Below, one piece after another: positions 24,433 through 54,618 of a stretch of DNA of 55,541 nucleotides (positions are counted from its first letter, which is position 1; each line of letters starts with the position of its first letter). The notes beneath the pieces are model-generated. The model did no database searches. It was not told the DNA's origin and saw only the letters and a program-made list of their open reading frames with translations. This DNA comes from an uncultured Gammaproteobacteria bacterium (GTDB taxonomy: Bacteria; Patescibacteriota; Patescibacteriia; Magasanikbacterales; UBA922). The stretch is from the NCBI GenBank assembly GCA_964522435.1, contig CAZFUL010000003.1, positions 1 to 55,541 on the forward strand, read 5' to 3'. Both the position numbers and the translations under genes were made by a program.

Positions 24433-24461
24433 TTGACAAAACTGCTTTTTTGTGGTATTAT
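24433..24461 (+). promoter_or_regulatory. sigma70 promoter upstream of GC-rich orphan
   Basis: TTGACA, 17 nt, TGg-TATTAT (extended -10). Confidence 0.78.
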
Positions 24462-25211: not shown

Positions 25212-25320
25212 ATTTATTAATAAACTCAGTTACCTAAGACAACCGAGTCCCCCCTCTTTACAAAACCACCAGAACTATGCTTAACTAATAGACTTTGTTC
25301 TTTACTGAAGGAGAAGAGAG

Positions 25321-28970: not shown

Positions 28971-29142
28971 TAAATTATTTCAAGCGAAGATACACTGCCG
29001 TTTGAATTATTTGAAGCGATACAACACAGATAAAGAGAATATCATTCTAGAGATATGGTCTTTTGTCTATAAAAGATTGTTTTCCTGGGATGATCAATCT
29101 TTAGGGCGCTCACGGACGCGTTTCCGTTGATGGGGTTGCTTC

Positions 29143-29772
29143 ATGCTGCGCATGCTGGTCATGATTTCGTTTCTCGTCTCTACTCAGGCGTTTGCTCTTG
29201 GCTATGTCCAGAGCACGGTCGAGACGGCCAACGGCGAAGAGGCAATTCTTTTCGAAGTATACCTTGATCGCAAAGCTCAACCGCAAGTGTGTCGGTTGGT
29301 GGCAGAGGGAGAGCCGGTCTGCGAGACTTTCCCCTTTCCTATTGGCTGGGCAGCGTTTGTGCTCATCACCGAGGGCTGGGGCGAGGCCTATGTGGGACCA
29401 ACCGTTGCTCCAACGGAATGGTTGGAACTTACCGCGTTTGCGGGAGTACAACAAGGCGACAAGGGATTGGAAGCACGCTATGCTGCAAGCGTGTTTCTGC
29501 AACAACAACCATTCGCTCTTCTTGCTTCTGTGGAGTTCGATCACCACGGCACAGAAGGTGTTTGGTACGATTGCATAGCAACTGGCAGCTGGGATGAGCT
29601 GATCACGGTGGGAATCCAAGCCCGCCGTTACGTTGGTATTGGTCCCCGCATTGAGGTGAGTGGCTCTGATGGGGCCATCAAGTTCTGGGGTAGTTGGACA
29701 CCCATTGATCCAGAACAACAACAGGTTCTCGACGGTGCTCGAGGCATGATCGGGCTCATGTTGATCAACTGA
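29143..29772 (+). CDS. orphan exported beta-strand-rich protein (beta-barrel-like)
   Basis: Signal peptide ending QAFA, alternating hydrophobic strands with Gly/Pro turns and Trp/Tyr; GC-richer than host. Confidence 0.65.
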   Translation: MLRMLVMISFLVSTQAFALGYVQSTVETANGEEAILFEVYLDRKAQPQVCRLVAEGEPVCETFPFPIGWAAFVLITEGWGEAYVGPTVAPTEWLELTAFAGVQQGDKGLEARYAASVFLQQQPFALLASVEFDHHGTEGVWYDCIATGSWDELITVGIQARRYVGIGPRIEVSGSDGAIKFWGSWTPIDPEQQQVLDGARGMIGLMLIN

Positions 29773-29852
29773 CAAGAAACTATAGGAGATAGAGGACGAC
29801 GAAATGGGGTTCGTCTCCCCCACTTGCTTGTGTGGGGAAAAACACGAGCAGG

Positions 29853-29890
29853 AATCAGGGAAGATATACGATGTCTTTCCTGGTTTTTTT
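29853..29890 (+). terminator. terminator after 29143 orphan (may also serve yifB)
   Basis: AATCAGGGAAGATAT-ACG-ATGTCTTTCCTGGTT plus T run; three G-U pairs on the + strand. Confidence 0.78.
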
Positions 29891-39822: not shown

Positions 39823-42800
39823 ATGACAATAACACCATCTAAAGAACCTGACACGGTAAGAAAAGTGGTTGTATTTATGATTATTGCATTGCCTATTCTG
39901 GCACTTGTATCTGCCGTAGCATTAATTTTTCGTGGTATTCCTTTTGCATCTGCTCACCCTAATCAAATAACGGTTATTGATTATGGTATTCAAGGAAGCA
40001 TTGCTGATATGGCAATTTCTGATGATGGGGAAACACGATACTTTACTGGTTCATTTAGTTATGTTGGCGCAGGGACAGGTCCTGCGGTTATTGTAAATTC
40101 CAGTACGGGGGAATTAGTAACCTATCCAACTGTTACGCCAGAAAATGCCACTGTTCGCGTGGTTATTCCAGATGGAAATGGCGGGTGGTATGTTGGAGGA
40201 AGCTTTACAGGAATTGGGGGTGTCGATCAAGATCGTATCGCTCATGTGCTTTCGACTGGTGAAGTTGATGAAGTGTTTGCTCCAACATTTGATAGTTTTG
40301 GACATGTGTATAGTCTTGTTTTAGATGAAGAAGCGGGTCTATTATATGTGGGCGGATCATTTTCTGAAGTAAACGGGGAAGCGAGAAATGGTATTGTTGT
40401 TTTAGATAGTACCGATGGAAGTTTATTTGATGGCTTTGCATTAAGTTTAAATTCTTTTGGCGTAATCTATGATTTGGAAGTAACGAGCGGAACACTCTAT
40501 ATCGCTGGAAATTTTTCTTCGATAAGTGGATCAAATCGTTATTCATATGCCGGCATTGATATCTCCTCTAGTACCACAAGTACTGTTACGGATTTTGGTG
40601 ATTCTTGGGCATTGGGGACCTTTAGCACGGCAAATGCAATTGCTGTGGATGATAATTATTTGTATATAGGAGGATCTTTTTTTGGACTGGGCGCTGATTT
40701 TGATATTAGTAATTTAGCTCGTGTAGATATTGTAACAGGAGATATTGACTCTACCTGGAAACCGGGTGTTGATAGCACGGTCTATGATATTGAATTAACA
40801 GAAGAAGGTACAATATATGTTGGCGGAAGCTTTTCAGGTGTTTCTGGTGATAGTGGACAAGGGTATCTGGCTGCTATCGATGTTGCAACTGAAGTGTCAA
40901 CGGGTTGGGCTCCAGAATTAAATGCCTCTGTTGAAGATATTTTTGTTGATGGGGGAACGATATATTTTGCAGGAAATTTTAGTACAGTAAACGGTGTAAC
41001 AAAATATGGTGCTGCTGCGGTAGATGCTGAGACTGGACTAGTAAACACAGGATTAACGGTTGTGCCAACGTCTGGATCCGTCATCTATGCAATTGCTGCA
41101 CAAGCAGAGCGCGTATACTTAGGTGGAACATTTACTGCCATTGGGGGGCGTCGTTGTGAAGGACTGGTTGCGATAGATGTTGATTCAGGAGAACCAACGG
41201 ATTTTTGTCATAGTTTGAAACGTTTTGGTTCTGTAACAGGTGGAAGAAATCTTTTGTTAGAAGATAATTTATTATATGTAGGGGGTGGTTTTGAAGAAAT
41301 TAATGGTGAGTCATTAAAATACGCTGCTGTGTTTGACGTTAACACGAATGAATTACAAGATGTTGATTATAATTTATCAGCTGGTTTTGGGATGGGAGAT
41401 CAGGGAGTATACCAATTTTTAATTGATGGAGCAGATATTTATATTGGTGGAAAATATTCTTCTGTCGGATCTAATAGCCATGCAGCACTTGCACGCTTTA
41501 ATAAAACAACAGGAGTATATGATGCAACATTTAATCCTGGACTACACTATCCCAATTGTTGTGGCGGAAATGATGCGGAAGTACGAGATTTTCTTTTAGT
41601 GGACGATATAATATATGTGGGAGGGTATTTTACTTCTGTAACGGGTACAGTTGACCGGGCGCATTTGGCGGCATTTAGTGCCGTAGATAGTAGTTTACTT
41701 GATTGGGCCCCTGAAGCGGATAACCGGGTCACTGATATGCAAATTGATGGAACAAGCACCATATATATAGCAGGAAATTTTAGCACCATAAATGGTGATG
41801 ATAGAGATTATCTTGCGTCAGTTAACGCAAGTACTGGTTCAACGACGGATTGGAATCCTCAACCCGGTGGCACACCTACTGCATTGTTACTACAAGATGG
41901 TTATGTCTATGTTGGAGGTAGCTTTAGCACGATTGGTATTGTAGATAGAACATTGTTTGCTAGTTTTGATCTTACTGATGGTAGTTTAACCGATTGGAAT
42001 CCTGAACTTGATTCAAATATTAGTGCCTCACAATCAAGCATCAATCGTATTATTAAAGATGGGTCTACCTTATATGTTGCAGGAAATGCAATAACAGCAG
42101 GAGTGCAGCGAATATTTAATTTTGCACAGTTTGGGCCACTGACAATTCAATTTAACTCAAGTACCTTTGCACAAAGTGAAACAGTGACGAGTACACCATA
42201 CGAGATTGAAATTAGTAGTAGTAATACCTCATCGCTTCCGATTAGTGTGGTTGTCGATATTACAGGGGGAACTGCAACCTATGGAGAAGACTACACAATG
42301 GTAACAGGAACAGTGAGCATTCTTCCAGGAGAAAACAGTACCTCATCTGTTATTACCATTATAAATGACGATTCTTTTGAGGCTGATGAAACAATTATAT
42401 TAACGGTAGAAAGTGCGCTTGGTGCAGAAATAAGTGGTAATACTACCTTTACCTATACTATTCAAAATGATGATGTCGCGACACCCGGTGTTATGATTAG
42501 TGAATCTGATGGCACAACCGCAATTACAGAAGGTGGTGCAACAGATACCTATACCGTGGTATTAAATTCTGAACCAGCGGCCAATGTGACGGTAAGTTTG
42601 ACGGCTGATGAGCAAGCAACTCTTTCAACAAGTAGTATTTTATTTACTTCTGCAAACTGGGATGAACCTGTGACGGTGACCGTAACCGCGGTAAATGATG
42701 ATATTGATGAAGACGCGCATACGGCGACAACCACCCATAGTGTTGTCTCAGCTGATCCAGACTATGACGACATTGAAACAGAAAGTGTTGTTGCCACTGT

Positions 42801-44766
42801 TACAGATAACGACACTGCAGGAATTACCGCTACTCAATCTGCCGGAACAACCACTGTGAGCGAAGCGGTAGATGGAAGTACTGACAGCTATACGATTGTA
42901 TTAACGAGTGAGCCAACAGCGAATGTAACGGTAGCGCTAGATGCGGGTGACGACATTAGTCTATCAACCACCAGCATTGTGTTTACCACTGAAAATTGGG
43001 ATACGCCAGTGACCGTAACGGTGACTGTTGTTGATGATGCGATCGATGAAGATAACTCACATGAAGATACCATTACCCATGTAGTGACAAGTGCGGATGG
43101 TGATTATGATGAATTTGTTATCAATGATATTGCTGTTACCATTACGGATGACGATACTGCGTCTATGACCTTAACTGAAGCTGGTGGCTCAACAACGGTA
43201 ACAGAAGATGGGGCAACTGATAGTTATACCATTGTTCTTGGAAGCGCGCCGACAAGTTCTGTCACTGTTGAGTTAGATATAAATAATGCAGAGGTGAGTC
43301 TTTCAACGACCAGCATTGTGTTTACTGCTGAAAATTGGGACGATGTTGTTACGGTAACCGTAACGGCTGATAATGATGCGGATGTAGAAGCAGATCATAC
43401 GAGTGTTATAACGCATAGTGTGACTTCTGATGATGATTCATATGATGGATTTGTGCTTGCCAATGTGACCGTGACTATTACGGATAATGACGTTGCTCAA
43501 GAAGATGACGAAGAACCAACAACCGGTGGAGGGGGAAGTGCGTTTTTTATCGCTCCATCACCTAATACCCAAGCAGGACAAGGAGCTCCGTTGGGCGCAA
43601 CTACCGCTCGTTCTCAAACAACGATTGCGCTTACTCCGGGAGATAGAACACCGATTGCTATTGGCGGGGCGACACATTCTATTAGTGTAGAAAAAGCCTC
43701 TGCGGAAGAAGTAACCGTTATTTTACAATCAACCCCTGTAGTTGTCACAGTGAAAAAAGGTGAATCTGTTGAGGCAGATATTACGGGCGATTTTGTGAAT
43801 GATGTCGTTGTACAATATCTAGGTATTTTGAATGGAAAAACACAAGTGGTTGTGTCTGATCTTATTATACAAAGAAAAGCATTTGTGATTAACGGAGATG
43901 CCTTAGAGACAGAAAGTGATATCGTAACGTTGCATATTTTGACGCAAGATGTACGCTCCGTAGCCTTTTTAAACAGCCCTGATTTTGCAGATCTCAGCTT
44001 TACTCCGTTTACGAGCTCAAGTATTTCTTGGAAAGTAGTACCTGGTTTAGGAGAAAAAACGGTCTATGCACGATTACTGTTGAACAGTGGAAATATTTTA
44101 ACTGTTTCTGACACGATTACTGTTGTCCCTGTAGGGGCTCGTCGCATAACGAATTGTTCATTAGAGCCTGGTGCAGCCTATAAGTCAAAAGAAAGTCCTT
44201 CTGTCTTCTTTATTACAGAGTCTTGTACAAAACGCTTGTTTTCGAATGAAGATATTTTCTTCTCTTACTTTGAATCATTTTCTTTTGTTAAAACAGTTGC
44301 TGCCGCTGAATTAGCCGTCATTGCTGATGATACCCTCGGTGCCATGCCTATGGGGATTCGAGCTCGATTTAAAGATGGTAGTATCGTAAAAAGCGTTGCT
44401 CGACCGGCAGTGTACCTTCTTTCTCAAGGCGAAAGACGACACATTCTTAACGAAGCAGCATTTTTGGCTCTTCGATATCGTTGGGATTGGGTTGAGTCAA
44501 TTACAGAAGAATTGTTAGATAAATATCAAGAAGGAGATGCTGTTGATGGTATCCCACGGCCAGCGTATACCTTAATTACTTATGCGAATTCGCCTAAAGT
44601 GTATCGCTTAGAACCAGATCCAAAAAATCCAGAGGTGTTATTAAAAAGACATATTGTGAATGTTGATGTATTACGTCGTTTAGGATACAGAACAGATCGT
44701 ATCGTTACGGTCTTAGATACCGAACAATATGCGGATGGTGCCCCAATTGGTCAAGCCTCACGATGA
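39823..44766 (+). CDS. large cell-surface protein: beta-propeller repeats, Calx-beta and three Ca-binding Ig/cadherin-like repeats, C-terminal triple repeat
   Basis: N-terminal TM; recurring LYVGGSFS.v.g..R..laa.D...G...W.P; repeats ending TITDND; C-terminal xGxxVKS...PAVY repeats. Confidence 0.85.
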   Translation: MTITPSKEPDTVRKVVVFMIIALPILALVSAVALIFRGIPFASAHPNQITVIDYGIQGSIADMAISDDGETRYFTGSFSYVGAGTGPAVIVNSSTGELVTYPTVTPENATVRVVIPDGNGGWYVGGSFTGIGGVDQDRIAHVLSTGEVDEVFAPTFDSFGHVYSLVLDEEAGLLYVGGSFSEVNGEARNGIVVLDSTDGSLFDGFALSLNSFGVIYDLEVTSGTLYIAGNFSSISGSNRYSYAGIDISSSTTSTVTDFGDSWALGTFSTANAIAVDDNYLYIGGSFFGLGADFDISNLARVDIVTGDIDSTWKPGVDSTVYDIELTEEGTIYVGGSFSGVSGDSGQGYLAAIDVATEVSTGWAPELNASVEDIFVDGGTIYFAGNFSTVNGVTKYGAAAVDAETGLVNTGLTVVPTSGSVIYAIAAQAERVYLGGTFTAIGGRRCEGLVAIDVDSGEPTDFCHSLKRFGSVTGGRNLLLEDNLLYVGGGFEEINGESLKYAAVFDVNTNELQDVDYNLSAGFGMGDQGVYQFLIDGADIYIGGKYSSVGSNSHAALARFNKTTGVYDATFNPGLHYPNCCGGNDAEVRDFLLVDDIIYVGGYFTSVTGTVDRAHLAAFSAVDSSLLDWAPEADNRVTDMQIDGTSTIYIAGNFSTINGDDRDYLASVNASTGSTTDWNPQPGGTPTALLLQDGYVYVGGSFSTIGIVDRTLFASFDLTDGSLTDWNPELDSNISASQSSINRIIKDGSTLYVAGNAITAGVQRIFNFAQFGPLTIQFNSSTFAQSETVTSTPYEIEISSSNTSSLPISVVVDITGGTATYGEDYTMVTGTVSILPGENSTSSVITIINDDSFEADETIILTVESALGAEISGNTTFTYTIQNDDVATPGVMISESDGTTAITEGGATDTYTVVLNSEPAANVTVSLTADEQATLSTSSILFTSANWDEPVTVTVTAVNDDIDEDAHTATTTHSVVSADPDYDDIETESVVATVTDNDTAGITATQSAGTTTVSEAVDGSTDSYTIVLTSEPTANVTVALDAGDDISLSTTSIVFTTENWDTPVTVTVTVVDDAIDEDNSHEDTITHVVTSADGDYDEFVINDIAVTITDDDTASMTLTEAGGSTTVTEDGATDSYTIVLGSAPTSSVTVELDINNAEVSLSTTSIVFTAENWDDVVTVTVTADNDADVEADHTSVITHSVTSDDDSYDGFVLANVTVTITDNDVAQEDDEEPTTGGGGSAFFIAPSPNTQAGQGAPLGATTARSQTTIALTPGDRTPIAIGGATHSISVEKASAEEVTVILQSTPVVVTVKKGESVEADITGDFVNDVVVQYLGILNGKTQVVVSDLIIQRKAFVINGDALETESDIVTLHILTQDVRSVAFLNSPDFADLSFTPFTSSSISWKVVPGLGEKTVYARLLLNSGNILTVSDTITVVPVGARRITNCSLEPGAAYKSKESPSVFFITESCTKRLFSNEDIFFSYFESFSFVKTVAAAELAVIADDTLGAMPMGIRARFKDGSIVKSVARPAVYLLSQGERRHILNEAAFLALRYRWDWVESITEELLDKYQEGDAVDGIPRPAYTLITYANSPKVYRLEPDPKNPEVLLKRHIVNVDVLRRLGYRTDRIVTVLDTEQYADGAPIGQASR

Positions 44767-44800: not shown

Positions 44801-45910
44801 ATGAAAATACTGATTGTGTCGGTTTCTGCAGGACAAGGGCATGTAAGTGCTGCACAAGCAATTGAAGATACAGCAAAAAAACAATATCCAAATATTGATG
44901 TTGTTCACATCGATATGATGGACTATGTAACAAGTGCCGTGCGCCACGCTATTGTTGATGTGTATGATGTATTGGTAAAAACAATACCTAGCCTGTGGGG
45001 GTATGTATATGAAAAAACAAACGATGAAAAACGCATGCGTCAGGTGAATAAAATAATGAATCGTATAAATTGTTTTCATGCAAAAAAATTCTATGCATTT
45101 GTAGAACAATATCAACCAGATCACATTATTTGTACGCATTCATTTCCAGCTCAAGTAATTCGTCAAGCCGATCTTCCTTCTATTGCGACTGTCCCAATTT
45201 CGCTCGTGGTAACAGATTATGGTTTTCATTCCTATTGGATTAGACCGGATATTACCCATTATTTTGTTGCCACAAAAAAAATGGCCTGGGAAATGCAGCG
45301 TCGTGGGATACAAAAATCTACCGTGACCGTCACGGGTATACCGGTTCGTCAGCAATTTTTAGAAAAAAAAGACACACAAACTGTAAAAAAGAAGTACGGC
45401 ATTGCGAAAGAATACGCTGTGCTATTAGTATTGGCAGGAGGGCAAGGTATGATGAAAAGCGATGGTATTGTTGAATTGTTGCAAACATATCAAGAGTGGA
45501 AGCGGCCGATATACATTATTGCGATCTCTGGAAAAAATGCCACTCTCTATGAGGCCTTACAAGACGTACAAAAAAAACCGAAACAGTCTCATATCATCGT
45601 TGAGGTGGTACAGTGGACGAATGATATTGATGAATATATGCGTATGTCGGATGTAATTATTTCTAAACCAGGAGGAAGTACGACGAGTGAATGTATGTTA
45701 TTGGGCAAACCAATGATAGCTGTAAATCCTATACCTGGACAAGAAGATACCAATGCAACGTCTATATTAGAACAAGGGCATGGCTATATTGCCCGCACAG
45801 ACGAAGAAATATTATATTATACAGAGTTGTTATTACAAAAGCCCGTATTAATACAGGCACAGGTACAAGATCCAGCAAAGAACATTTTGGAGTCTATTAT
45901 TCAAAAATAA
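44801..45910 (+). CDS. MGDG synthase / processive diacylglycerol glucosyltransferase-like (GT28, UgtP-like)
   Basis: SAGQGHVSAAQAI, PDHIICTH, VVTDYGFH..W, VTGIPVR, LAGGQG, ISKPGGST.SE, PIPGQE..NA. Confidence 0.88.
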   Translation: MKILIVSVSAGQGHVSAAQAIEDTAKKQYPNIDVVHIDMMDYVTSAVRHAIVDVYDVLVKTIPSLWGYVYEKTNDEKRMRQVNKIMNRINCFHAKKFYAFVEQYQPDHIICTHSFPAQVIRQADLPSIATVPISLVVTDYGFHSYWIRPDITHYFVATKKMAWEMQRRGIQKSTVTVTGIPVRQQFLEKKDTQTVKKKYGIAKEYAVLLVLAGGQGMMKSDGIVELLQTYQEWKRPIYIIAISGKNATLYEALQDVQKKPKQSHIIVEVVQWTNDIDEYMRMSDVIISKPGGSTTSECMLLGKPMIAVNPIPGQEDTNATSILEQGHGYIARTDEEILYYTELLLQKPVLIQAQVQDPAKNILESIIQK

Positions 45911-45940
45911 AAGATCCCCGGGTATACCGGGGATCTTTTT
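45909..45940. terminator. bidirectional terminator between glycosyltransferase and pilin array
   Basis: AAAAGATCCCCGG-GTATA-CCGGGGATCTTTT. Confidence 0.9.
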
Positions 45941-46403
45941 AAATGGCAAAGGGAGTAGCATCTTCTTCGAGTCCGTCATTCATATATTGTCGTTGGTCGG
46001 CTTCAAGAGAATCGGCAGGGCTTCCGGGGATAGGGTTGGGAGTAAGAAATTGAGTGACAAATAACGTAATTGAGTAAGCACTCAGAATAATAATAAGTCC
46101 CACAGCCCCACGAACAATGGTGAGCTTTCCTTTTTCTATCCGATCTTCGTTTCCCGCGGAGGTCATCCATAGAAAGCCACCCCACACGACATATACCAAT
46201 AACAGCGTTCCTAAAAGCGTCAATACATTACGAATTAACACCGCTGCCGCAATTCGAGGGTCAACGGCTTCACCAAAATTAGCTCCTTGCGTCCCAGCCG
46301 TTGCTTGGAGTTGCTTATCTAAATCATCCCTATAATCAGCCTGTGCACTAAGAGGGATGATAAGTGCTATAGAAAATAGGAAACAGAAAAAAAAGCGTTT
46401 CAT
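45939..46403 (-). CDS. VirB2/TrbC-like (T4SS_pilin) paralogue 1
   Basis: Signal peptide plus core WGGFLWMTSAGNEDRIEKGK...GLIIILSAYSIT. Confidence 0.82.
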   Translation of the reverse strand: MKRFFFCFLFSIALIIPLSAQADYRDDLDKQLQATAGTQGANFGEAVDPRIAAAVLIRNVLTLLGTLLLVYVVWGGFLWMTSAGNEDRIEKGKLTIVRGAVGLIIILSAYSITLFVTQFLTPNPIPGSPADSLEADQRQYMNDGLEEDATPFAI

Positions 46404-46411
46404 ATACGGTA

Positions 46412-46897
46412 TTAAAATTCTTCAGAATAATTTCCTGCACCACGAGCACAAGTTCCTCGAACAAGGTCAAAGACATTACAGGTGACAGAAGCTCCCTGGG
46501 GGGTAAGCCGATCACCTTGTACAGATTGCTGTACTAGTCTACCTACGTACAGCGTAATTGCGTAAGAAATAAGAATAACTACCAATCCAATAACTGCTGC
46601 GGGTAAGGTTTTTTTTGCTTTTTCTATGCGTTGGCCTTCACCACGGTCGGTAAGCCACCAGTAACCAGAGAGAATAATAAGTCCCATGAATATCGTTCCA
46701 ATCATCGTAAGCGATACTTGAATTATTTGTGCAATAATAATTCGTGGGTCAACGGGCGTACCAATTTCTGCACCCGCTGCGCCTGCTTGCAGTTGGGTGG
46801 ATACTGCGCCACTCAAATCGTTTGCCGCTAATACGGGGGTGGCAGCAAAGATAATCACGAGGCAGCAAAGACGTAATAATATGGAAAGGTATGTCAT
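46412..46897 (-). CDS. VirB2/TrbC-like pilin paralogue 2
   Basis: SGYWWLTDRGEGQRIEKAK...GLVVILISYAIT; 2-Cys tail. Confidence 0.82.
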   Translation of the reverse strand: MTYLSILLRLCCLVIIFAATPVLAANDLSGAVSTQLQAGAAGAEIGTPVDPRIIIAQIIQVSLTMIGTIFMGLIILSGYWWLTDRGEGQRIEKAKKTLPAAVIGLVVILISYAITLYVGRLVQQSVQGDRLTPQGASVTCNVFDLVRGTCARGAGNYSEEF

Positions 46898-46900
46898 AGA

Positions 46901-47371
46901 TTATCGTTCAATACAACGATTTGCTCGGCACAAAGATCCTTCTGGACAGTCGAGAGATGAATCACAGGCACCACCAGCTTCGGCACTTGGGTTTGCATTA
47001 CCACTTGCTCTGTTGACAATACGAGGAACCACAAAATTTGTAATGCTATAGGCACCAACGGTGATAATTAACCCAATAATCGCTGCTTTAATAATTTCTT
47101 GCGCTTTTTCAATATCGCTTTCATTTCCTCGAGCACTCATCCAAATAAACCCGGCATATACGGTAAGGAGTAAAAATATCGTTCCAACAAAGGAAAGGGC
47201 GACTTTAATCACCGCACCAATATTTTGGGCAAGGGTTGTTTCATTTGCTTCTGCAAAACCAGCTTGTTTGGCTGCTCCCGCAGCTAAGTCGCCTCCTAAA
47301 TCAAGCGCAAATACCACCGTAGGGATAACAAAAAAACTAATAATGAAAAGACTAAAAAGATATTTTTTCAT
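46901..47371 (-). CDS. VirB2/TrbC-like pilin paralogue 3
   Basis: YAGFIWMSARGNESDIEKAQ...GLIITVGAYSIT; 4-Cys tail. Confidence 0.84.
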   Translation of the reverse strand: MKKYLFSLFIISFFVIPTVVFALDLGGDLAAGAAKQAGFAEANETTLAQNIGAVIKVALSFVGTIFLLLTVYAGFIWMSARGNESDIEKAQEIIKAAIIGLIITVGAYSITNFVVPRIVNRASGNANPSAEAGGACDSSLDCPEGSLCRANRCIER

Positions 47372-47379
47372 AGAGTAAA

Positions 47380-47757
47380 TTAGCCTACTTGTCCCAAGCG
47401 AGAGGTAACAAGGGCAGTAATGGCATAAGCACTCATAACAACAATGAGGCCAATGACCGCTGCTTTAATAATTTCTTGAGCTTTTTCTATTTGGCCAGAA
47501 TCTCCACGCGCAGTCATCCAAAGGTAACCCGCATATACCGTTAATACAAGAAAAATTAACCCAACAAAAGACAGTGCAGTAAAAATAATTTGTCCGGCAA
47601 CAACATCTACTTGTGTTTCACTCGTACCTGCTTTTTTTCCTGCAGTGCCTAAATTTGTCATCGCATCTTTTAAACTACCAGCCGCATGTGTGGCAGAAGT
47701 AAGGCTAACAAAAGAAATCACAACGAGTAAGAGAAAAGAAAAAATTTTTTGTTTCAT
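47380..47757 (-). CDS. VirB2/TrbC-like pilin paralogue 4
   Basis: YAGYLWMTARGDSGQIEKAQ...GLIVVMSAYAIT. Confidence 0.84.
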   Translation of the reverse strand: MKQKIFSFLLLVVISFVSLTSATHAAGSLKDAMTNLGTAGKKAGTSETQVDVVAGQIIFTALSFVGLIFLVLTVYAGYLWMTARGDSGQIEKAQEIIKAAVIGLIVVMSAYAITALVTSRLGQVG

Positions 47758-47771
47758 ACGTATGAATGTAA

Positions 47772-48392
47772 TTATTGTTGACATTGAGCAAGACAGGTTT
47801 CTACTCGTTCAAGACCTACCCTAAATTCATAATCAGTGCCGTCGCAAAAATCATCTCCAACATCACAACGGGTTCCTTGTGTTTGACAATCTTGCATCGA
47901 GGTAACCCGACATGCCCAGCCAGCATTTACGCGATCGAGACAACAACCGAGGCGACTTCCATCTTGTCCTCCCGGAAGATCATTTCCCGATGCAGTCCCT
48001 TCAATGGTTGGTTGAAGTCGCGTGAGTAAAAACGAGGTAATGGCATAAGCAAATAATATCACGGCTAAACCAGCAAGCGCTGTGAAAAGCGTATTTCTAG
48101 CTTTGTTTACTTGATCATCATTTCCTCGAGCACTCATCCATAGTATACCAGCATATACGGTGAGACCCAAAAATAAGAGACCAACTAATCCCAACACTCG
48201 TTTGATGAGTTGGCCAGAAGAGTCACTAAGATTTTTTTGAGAAAGTCCAGTTTTTTGCGGATCAGACACTTGTTGTAAGAGTTGATCCGCATTATTAATG
48301 GTTAAATTTCCTTGTGCAAATACAGAAGCGGTACCAAAGAAAAGTACGGTACAACTAAGGATGGTTATGAGAAAAAATCTTCGTATATGCAT
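47772..48392 (-). CDS. VirB2/TrbC-like pilin paralogue 5
   Basis: YAGILWMSARGNDDQVNKAR...GLAVILFAYAIT; 8-Cys tail. Confidence 0.84.
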   Translation of the reverse strand: MHIRRFFLITILSCTVLFFGTASVFAQGNLTINNADQLLQQVSDPQKTGLSQKNLSDSSGQLIKRVLGLVGLLFLGLTVYAGILWMSARGNDDQVNKARNTLFTALAGLAVILFAYAITSFLLTRLQPTIEGTASGNDLPGGQDGSRLGCCLDRVNAGWACRVTSMQDCQTQGTRCDVGDDFCDGTDYEFRVGLERVETCLAQCQQ

Positions 48393-48404
48393 AAAAACAC
48401 GCTA

Positions 48405-48794
48405 TTAGGTATTTGGTTGGCCGGCTTGAGGAGGTTCAGCGCTTGTAAATATAAAGTTCGTAATCGCGTACGATCCAAGAACCACAATAAGACCAATAAT
48501 TGCCGCAATAATAGTTTCTTTTGCTTTATTTACCACACTATCCTCTCCACGGGCAGTCATCCATAAAAAGCCACCATAGACCATAAGAATGAAAAAAATA
48601 ACCCCAATCATAGAAAGAGCTGCCCCAATAAGCGTTCCAATAAGATCAGGCACCGAGCGATTATATTTTTGAGATAGACCCGCTGCTTTTGCGGTTGCAT
48701 CTGTACCAAAACTATCAGCGAATACGGGTTGAGATAGTGATAGAGCTCCAATAAATAAGGCGATACAGAGTAGGGGAAAAAAATATTTTTTCAT
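48405..48794 (-). CDS. VirB2/TrbC-like pilin paralogue 6
   Basis: YGGFLWMTARGEDSVVNKAK...GLIVVLGSYAIT. Confidence 0.84.
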   Translation of the reverse strand: MKKYFFPLLCIALFIGALSLSQPVFADSFGTDATAKAAGLSQKYNRSVPDLIGTLIGAALSMIGVIFFILMVYGGFLWMTARGEDSVVNKAKETIIAAIIGLIVVLGSYAITNFIFTSAEPPQAGQPNT

Positions 48795-48837
48795 AACAAT
48801 ACATTAAATGATCAAATAGGCATGCAAGAGCACCGCT

Positions 48838-49275
48838 TTATGTTGATGTAGGAGAAGGCTGTGGTGCGGGGCTACTTTCCAATGATTGAAAAACGAATTG
48901 GGTCATAGCATAGGCTGCTAATACAATCACTAAGCCAATGGATGCTGCCACAAGGGTATCTTTTGCTTTTTTTGTATACTCTTCTTTTCCATGTGCGAGC
49001 ATCCAGGTGAAGCCAGCATAAATGGTAAGAAGTAAAAAAATAACCCCTAAAAAAGCCAGGGCAACCCCCACAATAGTCCCGAGCAATTCTGGAACAGAAG
49101 AAGAAACACTGTTTTTTAAGGTATTATTTCCTACCTTGGATGCTCCTGCAATGTCACTTAATCCAAGGTCAGCTGAAATAGTTGGGCCACTTGTCAATAC
49201 CGGAGTGGTAAACAGAACGACTCCCAAAAAAAGAGGAAGAAGTAACAAACATAGATTGTTTACCACTCGACGCAT
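48838..49275 (-). CDS. VirB2/TrbC-like pilin paralogue 7
   Basis: YAGFTWMLAHGKEEYTKKAK...GLVIVLAAYAMT; start moved to 49275 to avoid overlap. Confidence 0.8.
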   Translation of the reverse strand: MRRVVNNLCLLLLPLFLGVVLFTTPVLTSGPTISADLGLSDIAGASKVGNNTLKNSVSSSVPELLGTIVGVALAFLGVIFLLLTIYAGFTWMLAHGKEEYTKKAKDTLVAASIGLVIVLAAYAMTQFVFQSLESSPAPQPSPTST

Positions 49276-49288
49276 AGACAGGTAGAAT

Positions 49289-49687
49289 TTATTGCGGTGC
49301 ATCTTGATAGTCTCCCGTGGTTGCTTCGTATGCTTGGCGGGTGACGTAGGTTGTAATTGAGTAGGCACTTAAGATAATGATAAGACCAATAACTGAGGAA
49401 ATAATAATACTTTTTGCTTTACCGATTTGATCATCATTCCCTGCCGCTGTTGTCCATAAGATACCAGCGTAGACAATGAGCGCGACCATAATGGTTCCTA
49501 AAAGAGGAAGGAGACCTTTATTAATAATGGTGGCAACGGTAACACGAACATCTTGATCTTTTAGGCCGGTGGCTCTTCCTGGAGCAAGTCCAAGAGGGTC
49601 TTGTTGCGCACTAGCCAATTCTGGCGTGTACAATACGACTCCTGTAAGCAAGAGGAGCATTGCACCTACGATGACACGTTTTCTCAT
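49289..49687 (-). CDS. VirB2/TrbC-like pilin paralogue 8
   Basis: YAGILWTTAAGNDDQIGKAK...GLIIILSAYSIT. Confidence 0.84.
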   Translation of the reverse strand: MRKRVIVGAMLLLLTGVVLYTPELASAQQDPLGLAPGRATGLKDQDVRVTVATIINKGLLPLLGTIMVALIVYAGILWTTAAGNDDQIGKAKSIIISSVIGLIIILSAYSITTYVTRQAYEATTGDYQDAPQ

Positions 49688-49798
49688 AGCGTGAAAATAG
49701 ATTAAAAATATGTTTTAAAAAGTTTTCGCAACAGTGGCGTGTTACGAACACTTCTTAAAAGGGGAGAACTCTACCCCTTAATTAAGAGGGGCTTATCA

Positions 49799-50254
49799 TT
49801 AAAAATCTATTTGATCAGCACCATCTACGTTTGTTGCTTGCCCGATTTTGACTAAAGCAAATTTTGCTAAAGACCATGAGGCGAGAACAATTACTAACCC
49901 GATAATACCAGCAATAATAATTTTTTTTGCTTGGGCAACGGCATCGTCATTACCACCGGCGGTCATCCAACGGAAACCACCCCATAGCATAATGACAACA
50001 GAAATAATCGCTAAAAAGCCAATAATGACATTAATAACTTCAGCAATAGTAACAATCGGAGATTGTGTTCCAAGAGCCGTGTTATCTTCAAATTCATTAA
50101 TTCCTTCTTGGATAGGACTGACGTTCGCATTATTGCCACGACCAGCACCTGCTTGTGCAGAGGCAGATTGAACAAAGAAAACCATGCTCAAAAAGAGGGC
50201 CATAGCCATGAGAACTGCTGTTTTATTTTTTGTAAGTACTTGTGTTGTATTCAT
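49799..50254 (-). CDS. VirB2/TrbC-like pilin paralogue 9 (candidate major subunit)
   Basis: WGGFRWMTAGGNDDAVAQAK...GLVIVLASWSLA; strong SD AAGGGGGTGA before ATG 50254. Confidence 0.84.
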   Translation of the reverse strand: MNTTQVLTKNKTAVLMAMALFLSMVFFVQSASAQAGAGRGNNANVSPIQEGINEFEDNTALGTQSPIVTIAEVINVIIGFLAIISVVIMLWGGFRWMTAGGNDDAVAQAKKIIIAGIIGLVIVLASWSLAKFALVKIGQATNVDGADQIDF

Positions 50255-50290
50255 GTAGCTCACCCCCTTTCTTGGGAAGGATTAAATAGG

Positions 50291-50869
50291 TTATTTGGGC
50301 TTGCAACACACAATATTTGGTGTTGCACCACAACGATTTACTTTACAGATATTACTTGCCGCATTTCTACACTCTTGCCAGGTTGCGGGTTCAGGAAGTC
50401 CTGCACACTCTTGCACAGGCAGACATTGAAATCCTTCTGCCCCGAAAAGTTCGACACAATCGCTTGCAGGGCCACCACCAGGATTTGGGGTCGTTGTTGC
50501 TGGACCTTCTCCGGAATTATTGCGTAAACCAGTAATAATTGTACTCAGTATAGCATAGGCACTAAAAATTACCAAGAGACCAATTGCCGCATACATCATG
50601 GCATGGCTGCCTTTTTTTACCATATCTTCCCGACCTGCTGAGGTAAGCCAAAGAACGCCACCATAAATAAAGGCAAGTAATGTGAGAGAACCAAGAATAC
50701 CTAAGCCCGAGGTGATTATTTTTCCTAAAATAATGGGAATACTGGTATTTCCAATAGGATTGCTAATCACGATATCAGAAGAAAATTCCTGCGCAGCGGC
50801 AATACTTACTATCGCACAAGAAAGGCCGATGCTACAAAGAAGAACAAACATGTATCTATAATAGTGCAT
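50291..50869 (-). CDS. VirB2/TrbC-like pilin paralogue 10
   Basis: YGGVLWLTSAGREDMVKKG...GLLVIFSAYAI; 8-Cys tail ending CCKPK. Confidence 0.82.
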   Translation of the reverse strand: MHYYRYMFVLLCSIGLSCAIVSIAAAQEFSSDIVISNPIGNTSIPIILGKIITSGLGILGSLTLLAFIYGGVLWLTSAGREDMVKKGSHAMMYAAIGLLVIFSAYAILSTIITGLRNNSGEGPATTTPNPGGGPASDCVELFGAEGFQCLPVQECAGLPEPATWQECRNAASNICKVNRCGATPNIVCCKPK

Positions 50870-50876
50870 ACCCAGG

Positions 50877-51500
50877 TTACTGAACAGCGCGGAACGCACT
50901 GCTGACATTTAATGTATCGAGTAAAAAGTCTACGGCAATATAGGCGCTTAAAGAAATAATAACACCTGTTATCGCAGCAATCAAAATTTCTTGCCCTTGT
51001 TTAAATTTTTCTGGGTTACCAAATGAGGCTGTCATGATAATACCCCCATAAATAAACATAATAAAGGCAACGGATCCAATAAGAGAAAAAATAAATTTGC
51101 CAACATTAATGGCTAATTCAATGAGGCTATTTATATCTCGACAGCCTGTTTCTGAGAATGCACAGGATGGGATAGGGCCAGCATAATTATCTGGAAGTCC
51201 AGCGCTGTCTTCGCATTGTGTTGCGGTTTCGTTATATATACAACCCGCCACTCCTGGGGTGCTGCACGCCTTTGTGCAAAATGTTGTCGGCGTATCCTGT
51301 CTTCCTACCGCAACGCCTTTTTGTTGAAAAGCAGCTTCTATCCCTGGAATGTTAAATATACCATCTTGTTGTGGATAGATAACACAAAGCGTTTGTTCAT
51401 TTTTTGTAAAACGACATGTTGCGGCCGATGCCTCATGATACGGGATCAATACACCAAAAAACAGAGAAAAAAGAACTGAGGGGAACAACAAATATTTCAT
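50877..51500 (-). CDS. VirB2/TrbC-like pilin paralogue 11 (N-terminal Cys-rich domain)
   Basis: YGGIIMTASFGNPEKFKQGQ...GVIISLSAY at the C-terminus. Confidence 0.8.
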   Translation of the reverse strand: MKYLLFPSVLFSLFFGVLIPYHEASAATCRFTKNEQTLCVIYPQQDGIFNIPGIEAAFQQKGVAVGRQDTPTTFCTKACSTPGVAGCIYNETATQCEDSAGLPDNYAGPIPSCAFSETGCRDINSLIELAINVGKFIFSLIGSVAFIMFIYGGIIMTASFGNPEKFKQGQEILIAAITGVIISLSAYIAVDFLLDTLNVSSAFRAVQ

Positions 51501-51505
51501 ACAGG

Positions 51506-52882
51506 TTATAAGGTTTGTTGAATAGTTTGCGCTGCTCGTTGTAATAGTTCTGTATCTCTTTTTATCGCATCTTCTCCTTCTGGCACCGGAACAAGGTAGG
51601 AATCAATCATCGTTTTAATTGCTTCTGTTGCTACGGCTGCATTTTTACCGCGGTACCAATTTTGTGCGGTGAGCACTTGGGTCGCGAATGGGGAGAGAAG
51701 CGGGCTGTCAATTTGTTCTGCAATGTGCGCCCGTACGGGGGAGGGTTGTTGGACCGCTTCTGTATAGCGTTTAATATTATTTTGACTCGTGATAAAGCGG
51801 ATAAAGTCCCAAGCAATATCTTGATGAGGTGATTTTTTTACCACAGATTGAATCCAATAATTCGCAATATTGATAGGTTGATTTTGATTGAGTTGGGGTA
51901 ATGGGATAATTTCAACATTCATTTGAGGGGCACGCTCTCGAATGCGTGTTGCATCAAAGGCATAGCCAATATAAAACGCACTTTGTCCTCGGGTAAATGC
52001 CTCAAACGCTGTATCTTTTTCTGCGTTCCAACTGTACACATCTTTTGTTGGTTGGGCAAAATCAGTATAAAATCGCAGCACTTCAAAAGAGGGATGATTC
52101 ATACCTAATTGGCGTAAGTTTGCGTCAAGGGTCACTGTGCCATCATTGATAATTGCAATATTTCTTTGCAACAATAGGGTGGCAAAGATGTCGGCGGCAT
52201 TATCAATATTACTGCCTGTTCCAAGGGGAACACCAGATTGAATAATGCGACCATCAGCGCCAAAGGTCGTCGTCTTTTTTACCGCATCTAGAAATTGTTC
52301 CCAACTCTCTGGAGGGGTAGCAACACCGGCTCTGTCCAAAATGTCTTTATTATAATATACCGCGAGGGTATCAATAGAAAGAGGAATACCGTAGACATCC
52401 CCATCAATAATTACATCGTCTGCAACGGTTTGTACAAAATTTGTTTCAATCGCTCGTGGGGTGGGCATGGCAAAATTTTGTAGGGTCACCACGGTTTCTT
52501 TTCTATAATTTCCTTGGATAGATACGTCAGCGACTTGTACTTGGGCAGGCATTGGGGCAAGCCGAGGTTGATACTTTCTCATCCAATGCGCATGGACAGA
52601 AACAAGATCTGGACTCACATCATCTGCAAGGGCATTGGTAAACAGGGTATCAAATTCCTCGTAACGAATTTGTCGAATCGTAATGTTTACATAGGGACGA
52701 AGGGCAGTATATTCTTTGGCAAACTCCCGTAGCAGGGTAACGTCGTCAAATACCGTCCAGTACTCGAGGGTCACGGGGCGAATCGCTGCTTGTTGTTCTG
52801 ACGTCAGTCCTTTACAGCCTAAGCCTAAAAATATCCATATGATACAGATAAGGCTGATACGAAAAAAGGAAAAACGATTCAT
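51506..52882 (-). CDS. extracellular solute-binding lipoprotein (carbohydrate-type family)
   Basis: Lipobox FLGLG-C, VTLEYW, DDVSPDLV, YGIPLSIDTLAVYYNKDIL, PESWEQF, AWDFIRFI. Confidence 0.88.
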   Translation of the reverse strand: MNRFSFFRISLICIIWIFLGLGCKGLTSEQQAAIRPVTLEYWTVFDDVTLLREFAKEYTALRPYVNITIRQIRYEEFDTLFTNALADDVSPDLVSVHAHWMRKYQPRLAPMPAQVQVADVSIQGNYRKETVVTLQNFAMPTPRAIETNFVQTVADDVIIDGDVYGIPLSIDTLAVYYNKDILDRAGVATPPESWEQFLDAVKKTTTFGADGRIIQSGVPLGTGSNIDNAADIFATLLLQRNIAIINDGTVTLDANLRQLGMNHPSFEVLRFYTDFAQPTKDVYSWNAEKDTAFEAFTRGQSAFYIGYAFDATRIRERAPQMNVEIIPLPQLNQNQPINIANYWIQSVVKKSPHQDIAWDFIRFITSQNNIKRYTEAVQQPSPVRAHIAEQIDSPLLSPFATQVLTAQNWYRGKNAAVATEAIKTMIDSYLVPVPEGEDAIKRDTELLQRAAQTIQQTL

Positions 52883-52903
52883 ACAAGAACAGGCTTAAAA
52901 CGA

Positions 52904-53764
52904 TTAAAGTATTTGATTAAAGATAAATTGAACAACGGCGTAACTGCTTAAAATAATAATAACGCCCATCCCTCCCCAGAGCATTGTTTTCATCGCTTGT
53001 TGTTCTTTTGAGGAATTTCCTGCCGCAGTCATCCATAAAAATCCTGCATAGATCAATATAAGTAAGGCAATACTTCCAATAATTCCCATCACAATACGAA
53101 TACCCACACCAATGAGTTCTGGAATTGATTTTACGGATAATAGGTTTAACTCTTTTATTTGGTTTTCAAGACCATTTGTATCAATTTCTGGAATCGTGGG
53201 GTTTGTCGGTATTGTTGGAGATGCTGCTAATCGTGCCGAACAAGAAAGAATTGCTATTCTATAATAGCCATTAACTACAAGGGGAACGCCTGGTTCTCGT
53301 TCTATTCCTCTGATGGTGGTGTTTGGTATGCGCTGATACCCTACGCTGGCTCCTGTTTGTGGAAGGGCGGTACAGTCATTTTCTTCACGGAGTTCAAAGG
53401 GAGTTGGTTCTGGTGCTCCATTAGAAATTGGTGCTGGAAAAAAAGGGGGGCCTCCACCAAGAAGCCCTTGAATTGTAGCGGTAAGTTCTGAAGCAGAAAT
53501 GACATCAGATATCGTATATTGTTTTGTTGCATTAAAGGGCATTGACTTTGTCATTGGGTGAGTTGCATCGACCAAGGCATCAAATTCCTCTGCTGTTCGA
53601 GGGTAGTTTCTATTATTGAATGTTCGATAATCCCTGAACCCCGCTACTTGTAATTGACAAATACACGTCCCTGTCACGCTTGTTTCTGTTTGTGCAACGG
53701 CAATCGGAGTAATGCTAAAAAAAACAATAACAGAAGTAAGAAGTGACAGGGAGAATAGTTTCAT
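52904..53764 (-). CDS. VirB2/TrbC-like pilin paralogue 12 (large N-terminal extracellular domain)
   Basis: C-terminal YAGFLWMTAAGNSSKEQQAM...GVIIILSSYAVV; about 170-aa N-terminal domain with 4 Cys. Confidence 0.8.
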   Translation of the reverse strand: MKLFSLSLLTSVIVFFSITPIAVAQTETSVTGTCICQLQVAGFRDYRTFNNRNYPRTAEEFDALVDATHPMTKSMPFNATKQYTISDVISASELTATIQGLLGGGPPFFPAPISNGAPEPTPFELREENDCTALPQTGASVGYQRIPNTTIRGIEREPGVPLVVNGYYRIAILSCSARLAASPTIPTNPTIPEIDTNGLENQIKELNLLSVKSIPELIGVGIRIVMGIIGSIALLILIYAGFLWMTAAGNSSKEQQAMKTMLWGGMGVIIILSSYAVVQFIFNQIL

Positions 53765-53769: not shown

Positions 53770-54618
53770 TTAGAGGACGAGACCTTCTTTTTTAGCAAAA
53801 TGAATGGTTGCTTGGAGTAAGGCGAGTTTATTACCTGTATCAAAATACTGTCCTTTATATTCGTAGGCAAAAAACGGTTTTTTCTTCGCTAAATAGTTTG
53901 CGGCGTCAGCTACCCAAATTTCTCCATCTTTTCCTTTTTGTTGTTTTTCGAGTGCGGACCAAATATCTTTGGTAAAAATATAGCGCATGCCTCCCACAAT
54001 TAAACCTTGAGGAGAGACTTTTTGTAGGGCAGGCTTTTCTACAAGGGTATCTACCCGGTATAAGCGGTCAGCCACCTGAGATTTGGCATAGACATTGCCG
54101 TATTTTGTCATGGCTTCTTTATCTTCAATTCGCTGTACTCCAATAATAGGTCCTTGTTTCTTATTAAACGCAGAAATAAGCTGTTTAGTAACAGGTGTAC
54201 TTGCGTCAATAATGCTATCTCCATCTGAGAAGGCAAAGGGGTCGTCTCCAATAAATTCTTTTGCACAAAGCAGGGCATGCCCATTTCCGAGGGGCTCTGA
54301 TTGCCGCGTATAAAAAAAGCGTACTTTTTTGGTTAAATCAATGAGCGGTTGTAAGCGATCTAATTTTCCTTGTTCTTTTAAAAAGTTTTCTAAGTCTTTA
54401 TCTCTATCAAAATGATCTTCTATTGCTCTTTTTTGTTGACTAGTAACAAAAATAATTTCTTTAATACCGCTATGCACCATTTCTTCTACAATATATTGCA
54501 CCACCGGTTTATCTAATACCGGTAACATTTCTTTGGGCATGGCTTTTGTTGCAGGTAAAAAGCGAGTCCCTACTCCAGCAACAACAATAACTCCTTTATG
54601 AACCGTTCGTGAAGGCAT
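53770..54618 (-). CDS. galU: UTP--glucose-1-phosphate uridylyltransferase
   Basis: VAGVGTRFLPATKAMPKEMLPVLDKP, QSEPLGNGHALLCA, VEKP, FDTGNK. Confidence 0.92.
   Translation of the reverse strand: MPSRTVHKGVIVVAGVGTRFLPATKAMPKEMLPVLDKPVVQYIVEEMVHSGIKEIIFVTSQQKRAIEDHFDRDKDLENFLKEQGKLDRLQPLIDLTKKVRFFYTRQSEPLGNGHALLCAKEFIGDDPFAFSDGDSIIDASTPVTKQLISAFNKKQGPIIGVQRIEDKEAMTKYGNVYAKSQVADRLYRVDTLVEKPALQKVSPQGLIVGGMRYIFTKDIWSALEKQQKGKDGEIWVADAANYLAKKKPFFAYEYKGQYFDTGNKLALLQATIHFAKKEGLVL

Follow-up and report, generated by a model that had tools for sequence, protein, structure and literature searches.

A conserved array of VirB2-like pilin genes with an embedded substrate-binding lipoprotein gene in a Magasanikbacteria-type genome

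Introduction

Arrays of small pilin-like genes are an already known kind of locus in the Patescibacteria, since two studies describe them. Quinonero-Coronel et al. (2025, PMC12102498) reported 441 "VirB2 arrays" of 2-11 pilin genes in 383 Patescibacteria assemblies, an array being defined as at least two PF18895 or PF04956 genes that stand in tandem or have one non-pilin gene between them, with a mean mutual identity of 25% and a maximum of 54%. In the same survey a pilin gene lay near virB4 in only 1,135 of 1,948 assemblies, and the patescibacterial VirB4 had affinity to the MPF-FATA class. Within the essential type IV secretion system (T4SS) cluster of Ca. Southlakia epibionticum, a run of predicted pilins was described by Wang et al. 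(2023, PMC10633639); the tables of that paper list six PF18895 genes (SEML1_0014-0019), each scored essential, which adjoin VirB6-like, PrgI and VirB4-like genes and are accompanied by no gene for a substrate-binding protein (SBP). The role of the patescibacterial T4SS and pilin array has been called "completely unknown" (PMC11665869), and reviews speculate on a pilus-like conduit and suggest that the T4SS and pilus of these candidate phyla radiation bacteria may serve uptake from the host (PMC12857230, PMC11665869). Here we analyse a pilin gene array at positions 45939-53764 of a 55,541-nucleotide stretch of contig CAZFUL010000003.1 (positions 1 to 55,541), hereafter the window, which is a portion of a 139,272-bp contig. 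An earlier note, made from the letters of the window, had stated that arrays of this sort were reported in Patescibacteria with unresolved function, which the published record bears out (PMC12102498, PMC10633639, PMC12857230).

As far as its sequence tells, the window array represents the ABY1 (Magasanikbacteria-type) form of the VirB2-like pilin arrays of Patescibacteria. It fits the published definition, with 12 genes, one intervening SBP gene and 22-35% identity among its members, and it shares with the described arrays PF18895 domains (with or without PF04956), divergent paralogues in a row that is sometimes parted by one non-pilin gene, a chromosomal location, the lack of a relaxase and an unresolved function. 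The published arrays have 2-11 genes whereas this one has 12, and arrays of up to 15 were also found in this analysis. Unlike that of S. epibionticum, the window array lies outside any T4SS cluster, carries the SBP gene and is flanked by genes for GalU and a glycosyltransferase. The fixed and ancient gene order, the conserved SBP and the GalU and glycosyltransferase flanks appear not to have been described; the main text of PMC12102498 makes no mention of an association with SBP, GalU or glycosyltransferase genes, and positional orthology is not reported there.

More distant systems offer further comparisons. The VirB2/TrbC pilins, exemplified by the Agrobacterium T-pilus (PDB 8cue, 8exh, 8fai), have in common with the window family a signal peptide, a hydrophobic two-helix hairpin, a basic loop and a W-M motif at the end of helix 1. 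The window family differs in having a loop about 8 residues longer, many paralogues rather than one, large ectodomains on several of these, a monoderm host and no adjacent VirB3-B11. Mbov_0395 and MMCAP2_0565 (NF045849) likewise belong to the T4SS of a monoderm lineage, in keeping with the MPF-FATA affinity of the patescibacterial VirB4 (PMC12102498), but theirs is a single gene in a conjugative element whereas the window holds a chromosomal multi-paralogue array; no literature on the function of these two proteins was found. The major and minor pilins of type IV pili and type II secretion systems provide an analogy, not a homology, in being fixed, co-encoded and non-redundant small subunits of which a few specialised ones probably make up a tip or priming complex, a logic to which the positional orthology of the window array also points. 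They are unrelated proteins, however, being class III prepilins with a single helix, whereas those of the window pair a Sec signal, cleaved by signal peptidase I, with a hairpin. Finally, several virB2-like genes also stand in tandem in Bartonella and Anaplasma, where the paralogues are models of surface variation (cited in PMC12102498). Those paralogues are regarded as variable surface antigens; the hairpin cores of the window, in contrast, are positional orthologues of ancient standing and show no trace of recent duplication or conversion.

Array layout

The pilin array comprises 12 open reading frames (ORFs) of 129-286 amino acids (aa), all co-oriented on the minus strand, and the ORF list places them exactly where the earlier note had put its 12 genes. 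That note had called the array tandem, a description that stands for the 12 pilin genes in the span, but the row is interrupted between W12 and W11 by an SBP lipoprotein gene. This thirteenth gene was overlooked in the note, as were the GalU and glycosyltransferase genes that flank the array. In the order of transcription the unit reads GalU, W12, SBP and W11 to W01, followed by a terminator-like hairpin. Positions are labelled u1 for W12 and d1 to d11 for W11 to W01, and the pilins of the related loci L001 and L004 are labelled A and B, respectively. The longest ORFs of W07, W10, W04 and W09 over-extend, with likely starts at 49275, 50869, 47757 and 50254.

53770-54618, minus strand: GalU-like UTP-glucose-1-phosphate uridylyltransferase gene, first of the packed unit; Pfam NTP_transferase E 7.9e-30
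52904-53764, minus strand: pilin W12 (u1), 286 aa; PF18895 E 1.6e-7 at residues 213-281; signal peptide, N-terminal ectodomain of ~190 aa, C-terminal hairpin
51506-52882, minus strand: SBP lipoprotein gene, 458 aa; SBP_bac_8 E 1e-26, SBP_bac_1 E 1e-23
50877-51500, minus strand: pilin W11 (d1), 207 aa; PF18895 E 6.3e-8; Cys-rich N-terminal ectodomain (8 Cys), C-terminal hairpin
50291-50869, minus strand: pilin W10 (d2); PF18895 E 8.1e-7; longest ORF to 50908; hairpin followed by a Cys-rich C-terminal tail (10 Cys)
49799-50254, minus strand: pilin W09 (d3); PF18895 E 3.4e-9, the best of the 12; longest ORF begins at GTG 50263, likely start an ATG
49688-49798, minus strand: W09-W08 intergenic region, 111 nt, the array's sole long gap; contains two hairpins, of which one precedes a T-run
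49289-49687, minus strand: pilin W08 (d4), 132 aa, small subunit; PF18895 E 2e-8; reciprocal best hit to d4
48838-49275, minus strand: pilin W07 (d5); PF18895 E 9.6e-8; longest ORF to 49368
48405-48794, minus strand: pilin W06 (d6), 129 aa, small subunit; PF18895 E 1.2e-7; TrbC 16.8 bits
47772-48392, minus strand: pilin W05 (d7), 206 aa; PF18895 E 7.9e-7; hairpin and conserved Cys-rich C-terminal domain (9 Cys)
47380-47757, minus strand: pilin W04 (d8), small subunit; PF18895 E 3.2e-8; longest ORF to 47784
46901-47371, minus strand: pilin W03 (d9), 156 aa; PF18895 E 3.5e-7 and a weak EB-module match; short Cys-containing C-terminal tail
46412-46897, minus strand: pilin W02 (d10), 161 aa, the most divergent; PF18895 18.3 bits, under the cut-off
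45939-46403, minus strand: pilin W01 (d11), 154 aa, last array gene; PF18895 E 2.1e-6; reciprocal best hits A11 and B11x
45909-45939, no strand: terminator-like hairpin, its stem 13 bp long with 7 GC pairs, plus T-run; top-ranked terminator-like site
44801-45910, plus strand: UgtP/YpfP-type (diglucosyl-diacylglycerol-synthase-like) glycosyltransferase gene, convergent with the array; MGDG_synth E 4.7e-35, NF010135 204 bits

If the most plausible start codons are taken, successive genes from GalU down to W01 are separated by 5, 21, 5, 7, 36, 111, 13, 43, 12, 14, 8, 3 and 8 nt, in agreement with the gaps of mostly 3-14 nt given earlier; GalU thus lies 5 nt upstream of W12. Every gene of the array is complete, the tightly spaced row makes up one or two transcription units, and promoter-like sites within the array are no more frequent than expected by chance. 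The hairpin at 45909-45939, between the convergent W01 and UgtP-like genes, is a predicted terminator that closes the array transcription unit. The W09-W08 gap contains a terminator-like site of its own (49748-49725) and may be an internal attenuator or restart point, or may split the array into two transcription units.

Family assignment

All 12 paralogues match PF18895 (T4SS_pilin), with E values from 3e-9 to 2.5e-3, and 11 of them exceed its gathering score of 26.6 bits (28.1-37.1 bits), W02 reaching only 18.3 bits. W02 also matches a family hidden Markov model built from A2, and it is the reciprocal best hit of A10 and B10. Hydropathy analysis shows an N-terminal hydrophobic signal segment followed by two transmembrane-like segments in each of the 12 proteins, as expected from the earlier description of a signal peptide and a two-helix core in every member. 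Reading of the translations reveals an AXA-type signal-peptidase-I site in 11 of the 12, W07 having PVLT↓S instead. Identity among the paralogues is 22-35% over the full alignment, with invariant Gly, Trp and Tyr positions common to all, and the best local pairs reach 42-50%. In the AlphaFold2 model of W06 a signal helix and a flexible linker precede a hairpin of two helices (48-79 and 85-118), with a predicted local distance difference test score (pLDDT) above 90. A profile of the 12 paralogues retrieves hundreds of PF18895 proteins, and one built from 106 relatives retrieves 74,028 cluster representatives among 1.84 billion proteins, so that the PF18895-type family must be very large.

The connection to VirB2 comes from profile comparisons. 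PF04956 (TrbC/VirB2) is also matched by 52 of the 106 relatives (best E 4e-8), and hhalign of the family profile against Agrobacterium VirB2 gives P = 2.4e-4 at 44% probability, with both helices and the W-M motif aligned; the authentic VirB2 reference was taken from PDB 8cue. Together with the 12 PF18895 matches, these results sustain the assignment of the array to the VirB2/TrbC family that the earlier note had made. The comparison of the cores with the Pfam models that it had proposed came out divided, PF18895 being matched throughout (11 above threshold) but the TrbC gathering score being reached by none. The window proteins are thus probably remote VirB2-family homologues and formally members of PF18895 only. 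Among six paralogues scanned against NCBIfam, five match NF045849, a "pilin-like conjugal transfer protein" of Mycoplasma integrative and conjugative elements (ICEs), with E from 1.4e-9 to 1.2e-4. W12 scores best (37.5 bits, E 1.4e-9), four others score 21.7-29.2 bits and W11 has no match; none of the six reaches the equivalog cut-off of 40 bits. By these scores NF045849 is the nearest curated relative after PF18895, but the window pilins are not members. Because the closest curated relative is a Mycoplasma ICE protein, the comparison suggests that the pilins may have been acquired along with a monoderm-type T4SS. This relatedness to monoderm MPF-FATA-type ICEs sits uneasily with a published statement according to which VirB2 homologues are missing from monoderm T4SS classes. 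A sequence search of the PDB with the paralogue profile retrieved only designed "Pizza" repeat proteins, which were judged spurious, and tblastn of W06 against plasmids gave no match.

The array had also been described as distinct from the type IV pilus encoded at 309-5759, and this distinction is confirmed: the combination of a class III prepilin signal (G↓F/M-x-x-x-E) with a single N-terminal helix is not seen in the 12 pilins, which carry Sec/signal-peptidase-I signals and two later transmembrane helices instead.

Elsewhere in the family the hairpin occurs in larger proteins. Natural fusions (among the family proteins P0241-P0384, e.g. P0244 and P0284) join 2 to 17 hairpin units in one polypeptide with one signal peptide, and for this reason we think that hairpin units act together; P0244, the sole fusion that was read, has no internal signal peptides. 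The idea that units of the fusion proteins map collinearly onto array positions was rejected, as identities are 25-40% with no order. Across the family the hairpin bears ectodomains of 100-3,500 aa, which may be attached before or after it. Family proteins longer than 3,000 aa consist of a single N-terminal hairpin unit followed by a giant ectodomain, from which it follows that one unit can carry a large ectodomain; in P0360, the one example inspected, this region was judged by eye to have Cys-rich, lectin-like and vWA-like segments and an adhesin-like character.

Positional orthology

In all-against-all BLAST, each window position and its counterpart in L001 are reciprocal best hits. L004 gives the same picture apart from its u1 pilin, B01, which is matched marginally better by W10 than by W12. 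Among the window, L001 and L004, orthologue scores are 88-149 bits versus 50-102 bits for the best paralogues within a genome. W05, for example, is 41% identical to its orthologue A07 across 194 aa, and identities to L001 and L004 in the flanks and module are 73% for GalU, 52-55% for the SBP and 44% for UgtP. Collinear reciprocal best hits at 11 positions hold across ~15 Magasanikbacteria-type loci, and collinearity is still partly visible in the 7-gene arrays of more distant lineages. W11 is the reciprocal best hit of d1 in 15 of 15 long-array loci and in most short ones; W12, whose reciprocal best hit in L001 is A01, is that of the u1 pilin (u2 or u3 in L012 and L018) in 10 of the 15. The gene order of the relatives is as in the window (GalU, pilin, SBP, ~10 pilins, glycosyltransferase), and a 1+11 layout like that of the window recurs in L078, the closest relative. 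Within the window, W06 and W07 are each other's best paralogue (42% over 132 aa) and have their best matches in common, A06 and B06, which marks a lineage-specific duplication of one ancestral position with W07 as the extra copy. The array accordingly consists of 11 ancient, individually conserved positions plus one duplication.

These results bear directly on the proposal of the earlier note that the 12 genes form an interchangeable subunit set, a reading akin to the suggestion in PMC12102498 that array paralogues are variants of a single pilin which serve host-range adaptation or variation of the surface, as was proposed for the VirB2 paralogues of Bartonella and Anaplasma. In favour of such a set are the low identity within the array (22-35%) and the ectodomains of the SBP-adjacent positions u1, d1 and d2, which vary greatly in length and sequence between genomes (~100-600 aa); no Pfam domain was recognised in the large ectodomains of the orthologues. 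In L004, moreover, a perfect 300-nt repeat (4591-4890 and 7525-7824) is shared by the ectodomain regions of u1 and d1, the large-headed pilins on either side of the SBP, implying a recent exchange between these two heads. Against it stand the collinear reciprocal best hits across ~15 divergent genomes, with orthologues closer than paralogues, the completeness and close packing of all genes, and the six S. epibionticum genes that are each scored essential. In addition, near-identical DNA copies, silent cassettes and inverted-repeat switches are all absent from the window, where DNA repeats of the array are 60-83% identical, and a shufflon or cassette mechanism was rejected for lack of suitable repeats. 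The collinearity, the closer orthologues and the absence of near-identical repeats together argue that the subunits are differentiated and non-redundant, and positional orthology largely refutes the interchangeable reading for the hairpin cores. We therefore consider a variable set very unlikely; such variation as there is seems confined to the heads of a few positions rather than extending to the whole set.

Two further observations concern L004, a Magasanikbacteria relative. Two Avd-like (23S_rRNA_IVP/bAvd) genes, at 3156-3521 and 5621-5986, lie on either side of its first pilin gene; no template/variable-repeat pair and no reverse transcriptase of a diversity-generating retroelement was seen near them. 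L004 also has a recurrent 47-nt intergenic motif, no copy of which occurs in the window.

The embedded lipoprotein and the flanking genes

The gene at 51506-52882 is predicted to encode an oligosaccharide-type SBP lipoprotein. Its lipobox, LGLGC, places the lipidated cysteine at Cys23, and G20, G22 and C23 are invariant in 61 orthologues. The AlphaFold2 model (pLDDT 93) finds its best Foldseek matches, at E ~1e-21, in oligosaccharide SBPs of ABC importers, and its structural neighbours include binders of sulfoquinovosyl-glycerol and -diacylglycerol; many aromatic residues are invariant among the orthologues. An SBP-anchored search of GTDB species representatives yielded 71 loci, labelled Magasanik-, Falkow-, Kuenen-, Buchanan- and Uhrbacteria with a few distant Paceibacterota, Nomurabacteria and Saccharibacteria, and those of their genomes that could be traced in Table S1 of PMC12102498 are all of class ABY1. 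In 50 of the 71 loci the SBP gene precedes three or more co-directional pilin ORFs; contig ends cut most of the others, and 3 have room yet no pilins. Starting from the pilin side, the same SBP-pilin module was present in all four contexts picked. The SBP is thus, by genomic context, a conserved member of the pilin unit at a fixed place. In Falkowbacteria-type short-array loci (e.g. L026, L027, L029, L030, L039 and L045) not GalU but SMC or ComM (Mg-chelatase-like) stands ahead of the module, ~0.1-3.5 kb before the SBP, and a non-pilin gene separates the first pilin from the other six.

The flanks recur as well. GalU lies directly upstream of the SBP or the first pilin in 28 of the 48 loci with room, and behind each of the 14 long arrays with room stands a glycosyltransferase gene, UgtP-like in seven cases and GT2 in the other seven. 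The GalU-like protein of the window scores 282 bits against NCBIfam TIGR01099 (galU), under the cut-off of 326.8. These flanks hint at a link to UDP-glucose-dependent glycosylation or glycolipid synthesis. In a bolder version, to which we attach a rather low probability, the whole GalU-(pilin)-SBP-pilin-glycosyltransferase block would be a self-contained ABY1 envelope organelle: an 11-subunit filament with the SBP as an integral tip or receptor, maybe glycosylated or co-polymerised with glycolipid via the GalU/UgtP-type enzymes, that captures or imports host-surface glycans without, or only loosely coupled to, a T4SS ATPase.

An uptake device is a related possibility, in which the SBP would capture a host oligosaccharide or glycolipid head group and a pilin conduit would import it, independently of an ABC permease and with or without a T4SS. 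The conserved place of the SBP at the head of the arrays and the lack of ABC permease or ATPase genes beside it fit this idea; BPD_transp and importer ABC_tran genes were found neither in the window nor in what is annotated of the flanks of L001, L004, L078, L079 and L081. The predicted fold and the invariant aromatic residues would fit a functional sugar-binding site, the structural neighbours include the sulfoquinovosyl binders named above, and import from the host through a T4SS or pilus has been raised in reviews (PMC12857230, PMC11665869). Its basis is purely contextual, however, and the pilins were found to have no transporter-like feature; an ABC importer encoded elsewhere could be the partner of the SBP, whose tie to the array would then be one of regulation only, and the S. 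epibionticum array has no SBP. We give an uptake device only a slim chance.

Secretion machinery and a proposed mechanism

Pfam scans of essentially all ORFs of at least 110 aa find no VirB4, VirB6 or VirD4 in the 55.5-kb window, as the earlier note had remarked for the first two, and no TraF-like peptidase. Among the 14 array-bearing genomes listed in Table S1 of PMC12102498, 12 are VirB4-positive, in none of which is VirB4 linked to the array, and the T4SS ATPase is hence very probably encoded away from it. In ABY1 the T4SS genes lie near comF, recG and radA (PMC12102498).

We favour, as somewhat the more probable account, a T4SS-dependent heteromeric surface filament or conduit built of Sec-exported, differentiated VirB2-like subunits. 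VirB2-type pilins have both termini outside the membrane and a cytoplasmic loop that later lines the pilus lumen, and their pili are protein-lipid polymers. After signal-peptidase cleavage, the hairpins of the window proteins would likewise span the membrane, their basic loop on the inner side and their two ends on the outer, so that ectodomains fused at either end would be displayed. A distal VirB4-type T4SS would then extract the hairpins and assemble one hetero-oligomeric surface filament or envelope-spanning conduit. In this assembly the small paralogues W04, W06, W07, W08 and W09 would form the shaft, and the large-headed or Cys-rich W12, W11 and W10, and also W05, would with the SBP make up a part that contacts host glycans, a division reminiscent of major and minor pilins. 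In favour of this account are the family matches and the hairpin architecture, the differentiated positions, the multi-hairpin fusions as a sign of co-assembly, the fused ectodomains as a sign of display, the conserved SBP, and the VirB4 genes in trans in 12 of the 14 listed genomes.

Several results weigh against this account. No paralogue reaches the PF04956 gathering score of 27.9 bits, and W06 alone matches that model (16.8 bits). A Foldseek search of the PDB with the W06 hairpin returned generic helical hairpins (best E 0.76) with no pilin in the top 50; since Foldseek cannot separate this hairpin from other helical hairpins, the VirB2 link rests on sequence profiles. No T4SS gene is linked to the array, here or in ~80 related loci, whose flanks of up to 10 kb per side contain no VirB4-like P-loop ORF, and two of the 14 listed array-bearing genomes, both small draft metagenome-assembled genomes (MAGs), are VirB4-negative. 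Polar effects of transposon insertions could account in part for the essential scores of the six S. epibionticum genes, the assignment of shaft and tip roles rests only on size and gene position, and no filament has been observed for any member of the PF18895-type family. Ectodomains of 300-600 aa and polytopic multi-hairpin fusions are, in addition, hard to fit into a canonical thin VirB2 pilus. P-loop candidates in the flanks turned out to be SMC, ComM, ABC exporters, GyrA, IF-2 and PilB.

Some of these points would be accommodated by a membrane-resident scaffold, in which the hairpins are never extruded and a hetero-oligomeric platform displays the ectodomains and holds the SBP independently of a T4SS ATPase. 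The separation of the array from VirB4 in ~80 loci and the two MAGs listed without VirB4 speak for such a platform, as do polypeptides with 4-17 fused hairpins and one-hairpin proteins of more than 3,000 aa, which are easier to picture as membrane anchors than as pilus subunits, and large ectodomains on either side of the hairpin. The family is nevertheless homologous to bona fide pilus subunits; in Saccharimonadia it lies inside the essential T4SS cluster beside VirB4-, VirB6- and PrgI-like genes, and VirB4 is present in 12 of the 14 listed array-bearing genomes. A simple anchor, moreover, would need no 11 conserved, distinct small subunits without ectodomains. We hold a scaffold to be unlikely, though deserving of more weight than the uptake device or the variable set, and retain the T4SS-dependent filament or conduit as the favoured account.

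Other features of the window

Outside the array the window is ordinary chromosomal Patescibacteria DNA, with type IV pilus genes, dnaA, dnaN, polA, genes for a penicillin-binding protein, trigger factor and rnpA, and two giant surface proteins.

309-5759, plus strand: type IV pilus cluster (PilB/T2SSE, PilC/T2SSF, PilM, PilN and two small ORFs with no assignment), unrelated to the array
10443-13736, minus strand: giant predicted surface protein, 1,097 aa, LVIVD repeats
39823-44766, plus strand: giant predicted surface protein, 1,647 aa, Calx-beta and DUF5122 beta-propeller domains

The giant Calx-beta protein is also syntenic beside the L001 array, so the array appears to stand in a conserved "surface" neighbourhood. 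The replication origin region seems to fall in the window, with dnaA at 21726-23294 and the minimum of cumulative GC skew near 27-28 kb; the array begins ~22.6 kb from dnaA and is transcribed on the minus strand. Proximity of T4SS genes to the origin is documented for other classes (PMC12102498). Two GC-rich stretches, 24000-25300 and 28500-30000, have a GC fraction of 0.47-0.54 as against ~0.40 for the rest of the window, the first lying just downstream of rnpA and a small conserved-looking ORF (24013-24288). Their ORFs have no Pfam match, and Rfam gives none at E <0.1.

Significance

Only one patescibacterium is genetically tractable, and it cannot do without the T4SS and its pilin array (PMC10633639). 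That the array of class ABY1 is ancient and fixed, with differentiated subunits, speaks for a heteromeric machine and against surface variation. The array is genetically uncoupled from VirB4 and is flanked by UDP-glucose and glycosyltransferase genes. The conserved SBP offers a concrete handle on this machine, through its ligand and its pilin partners, and if confirmed these features would guide work on host contact or the uptake of material by these ultra-small bacteria.

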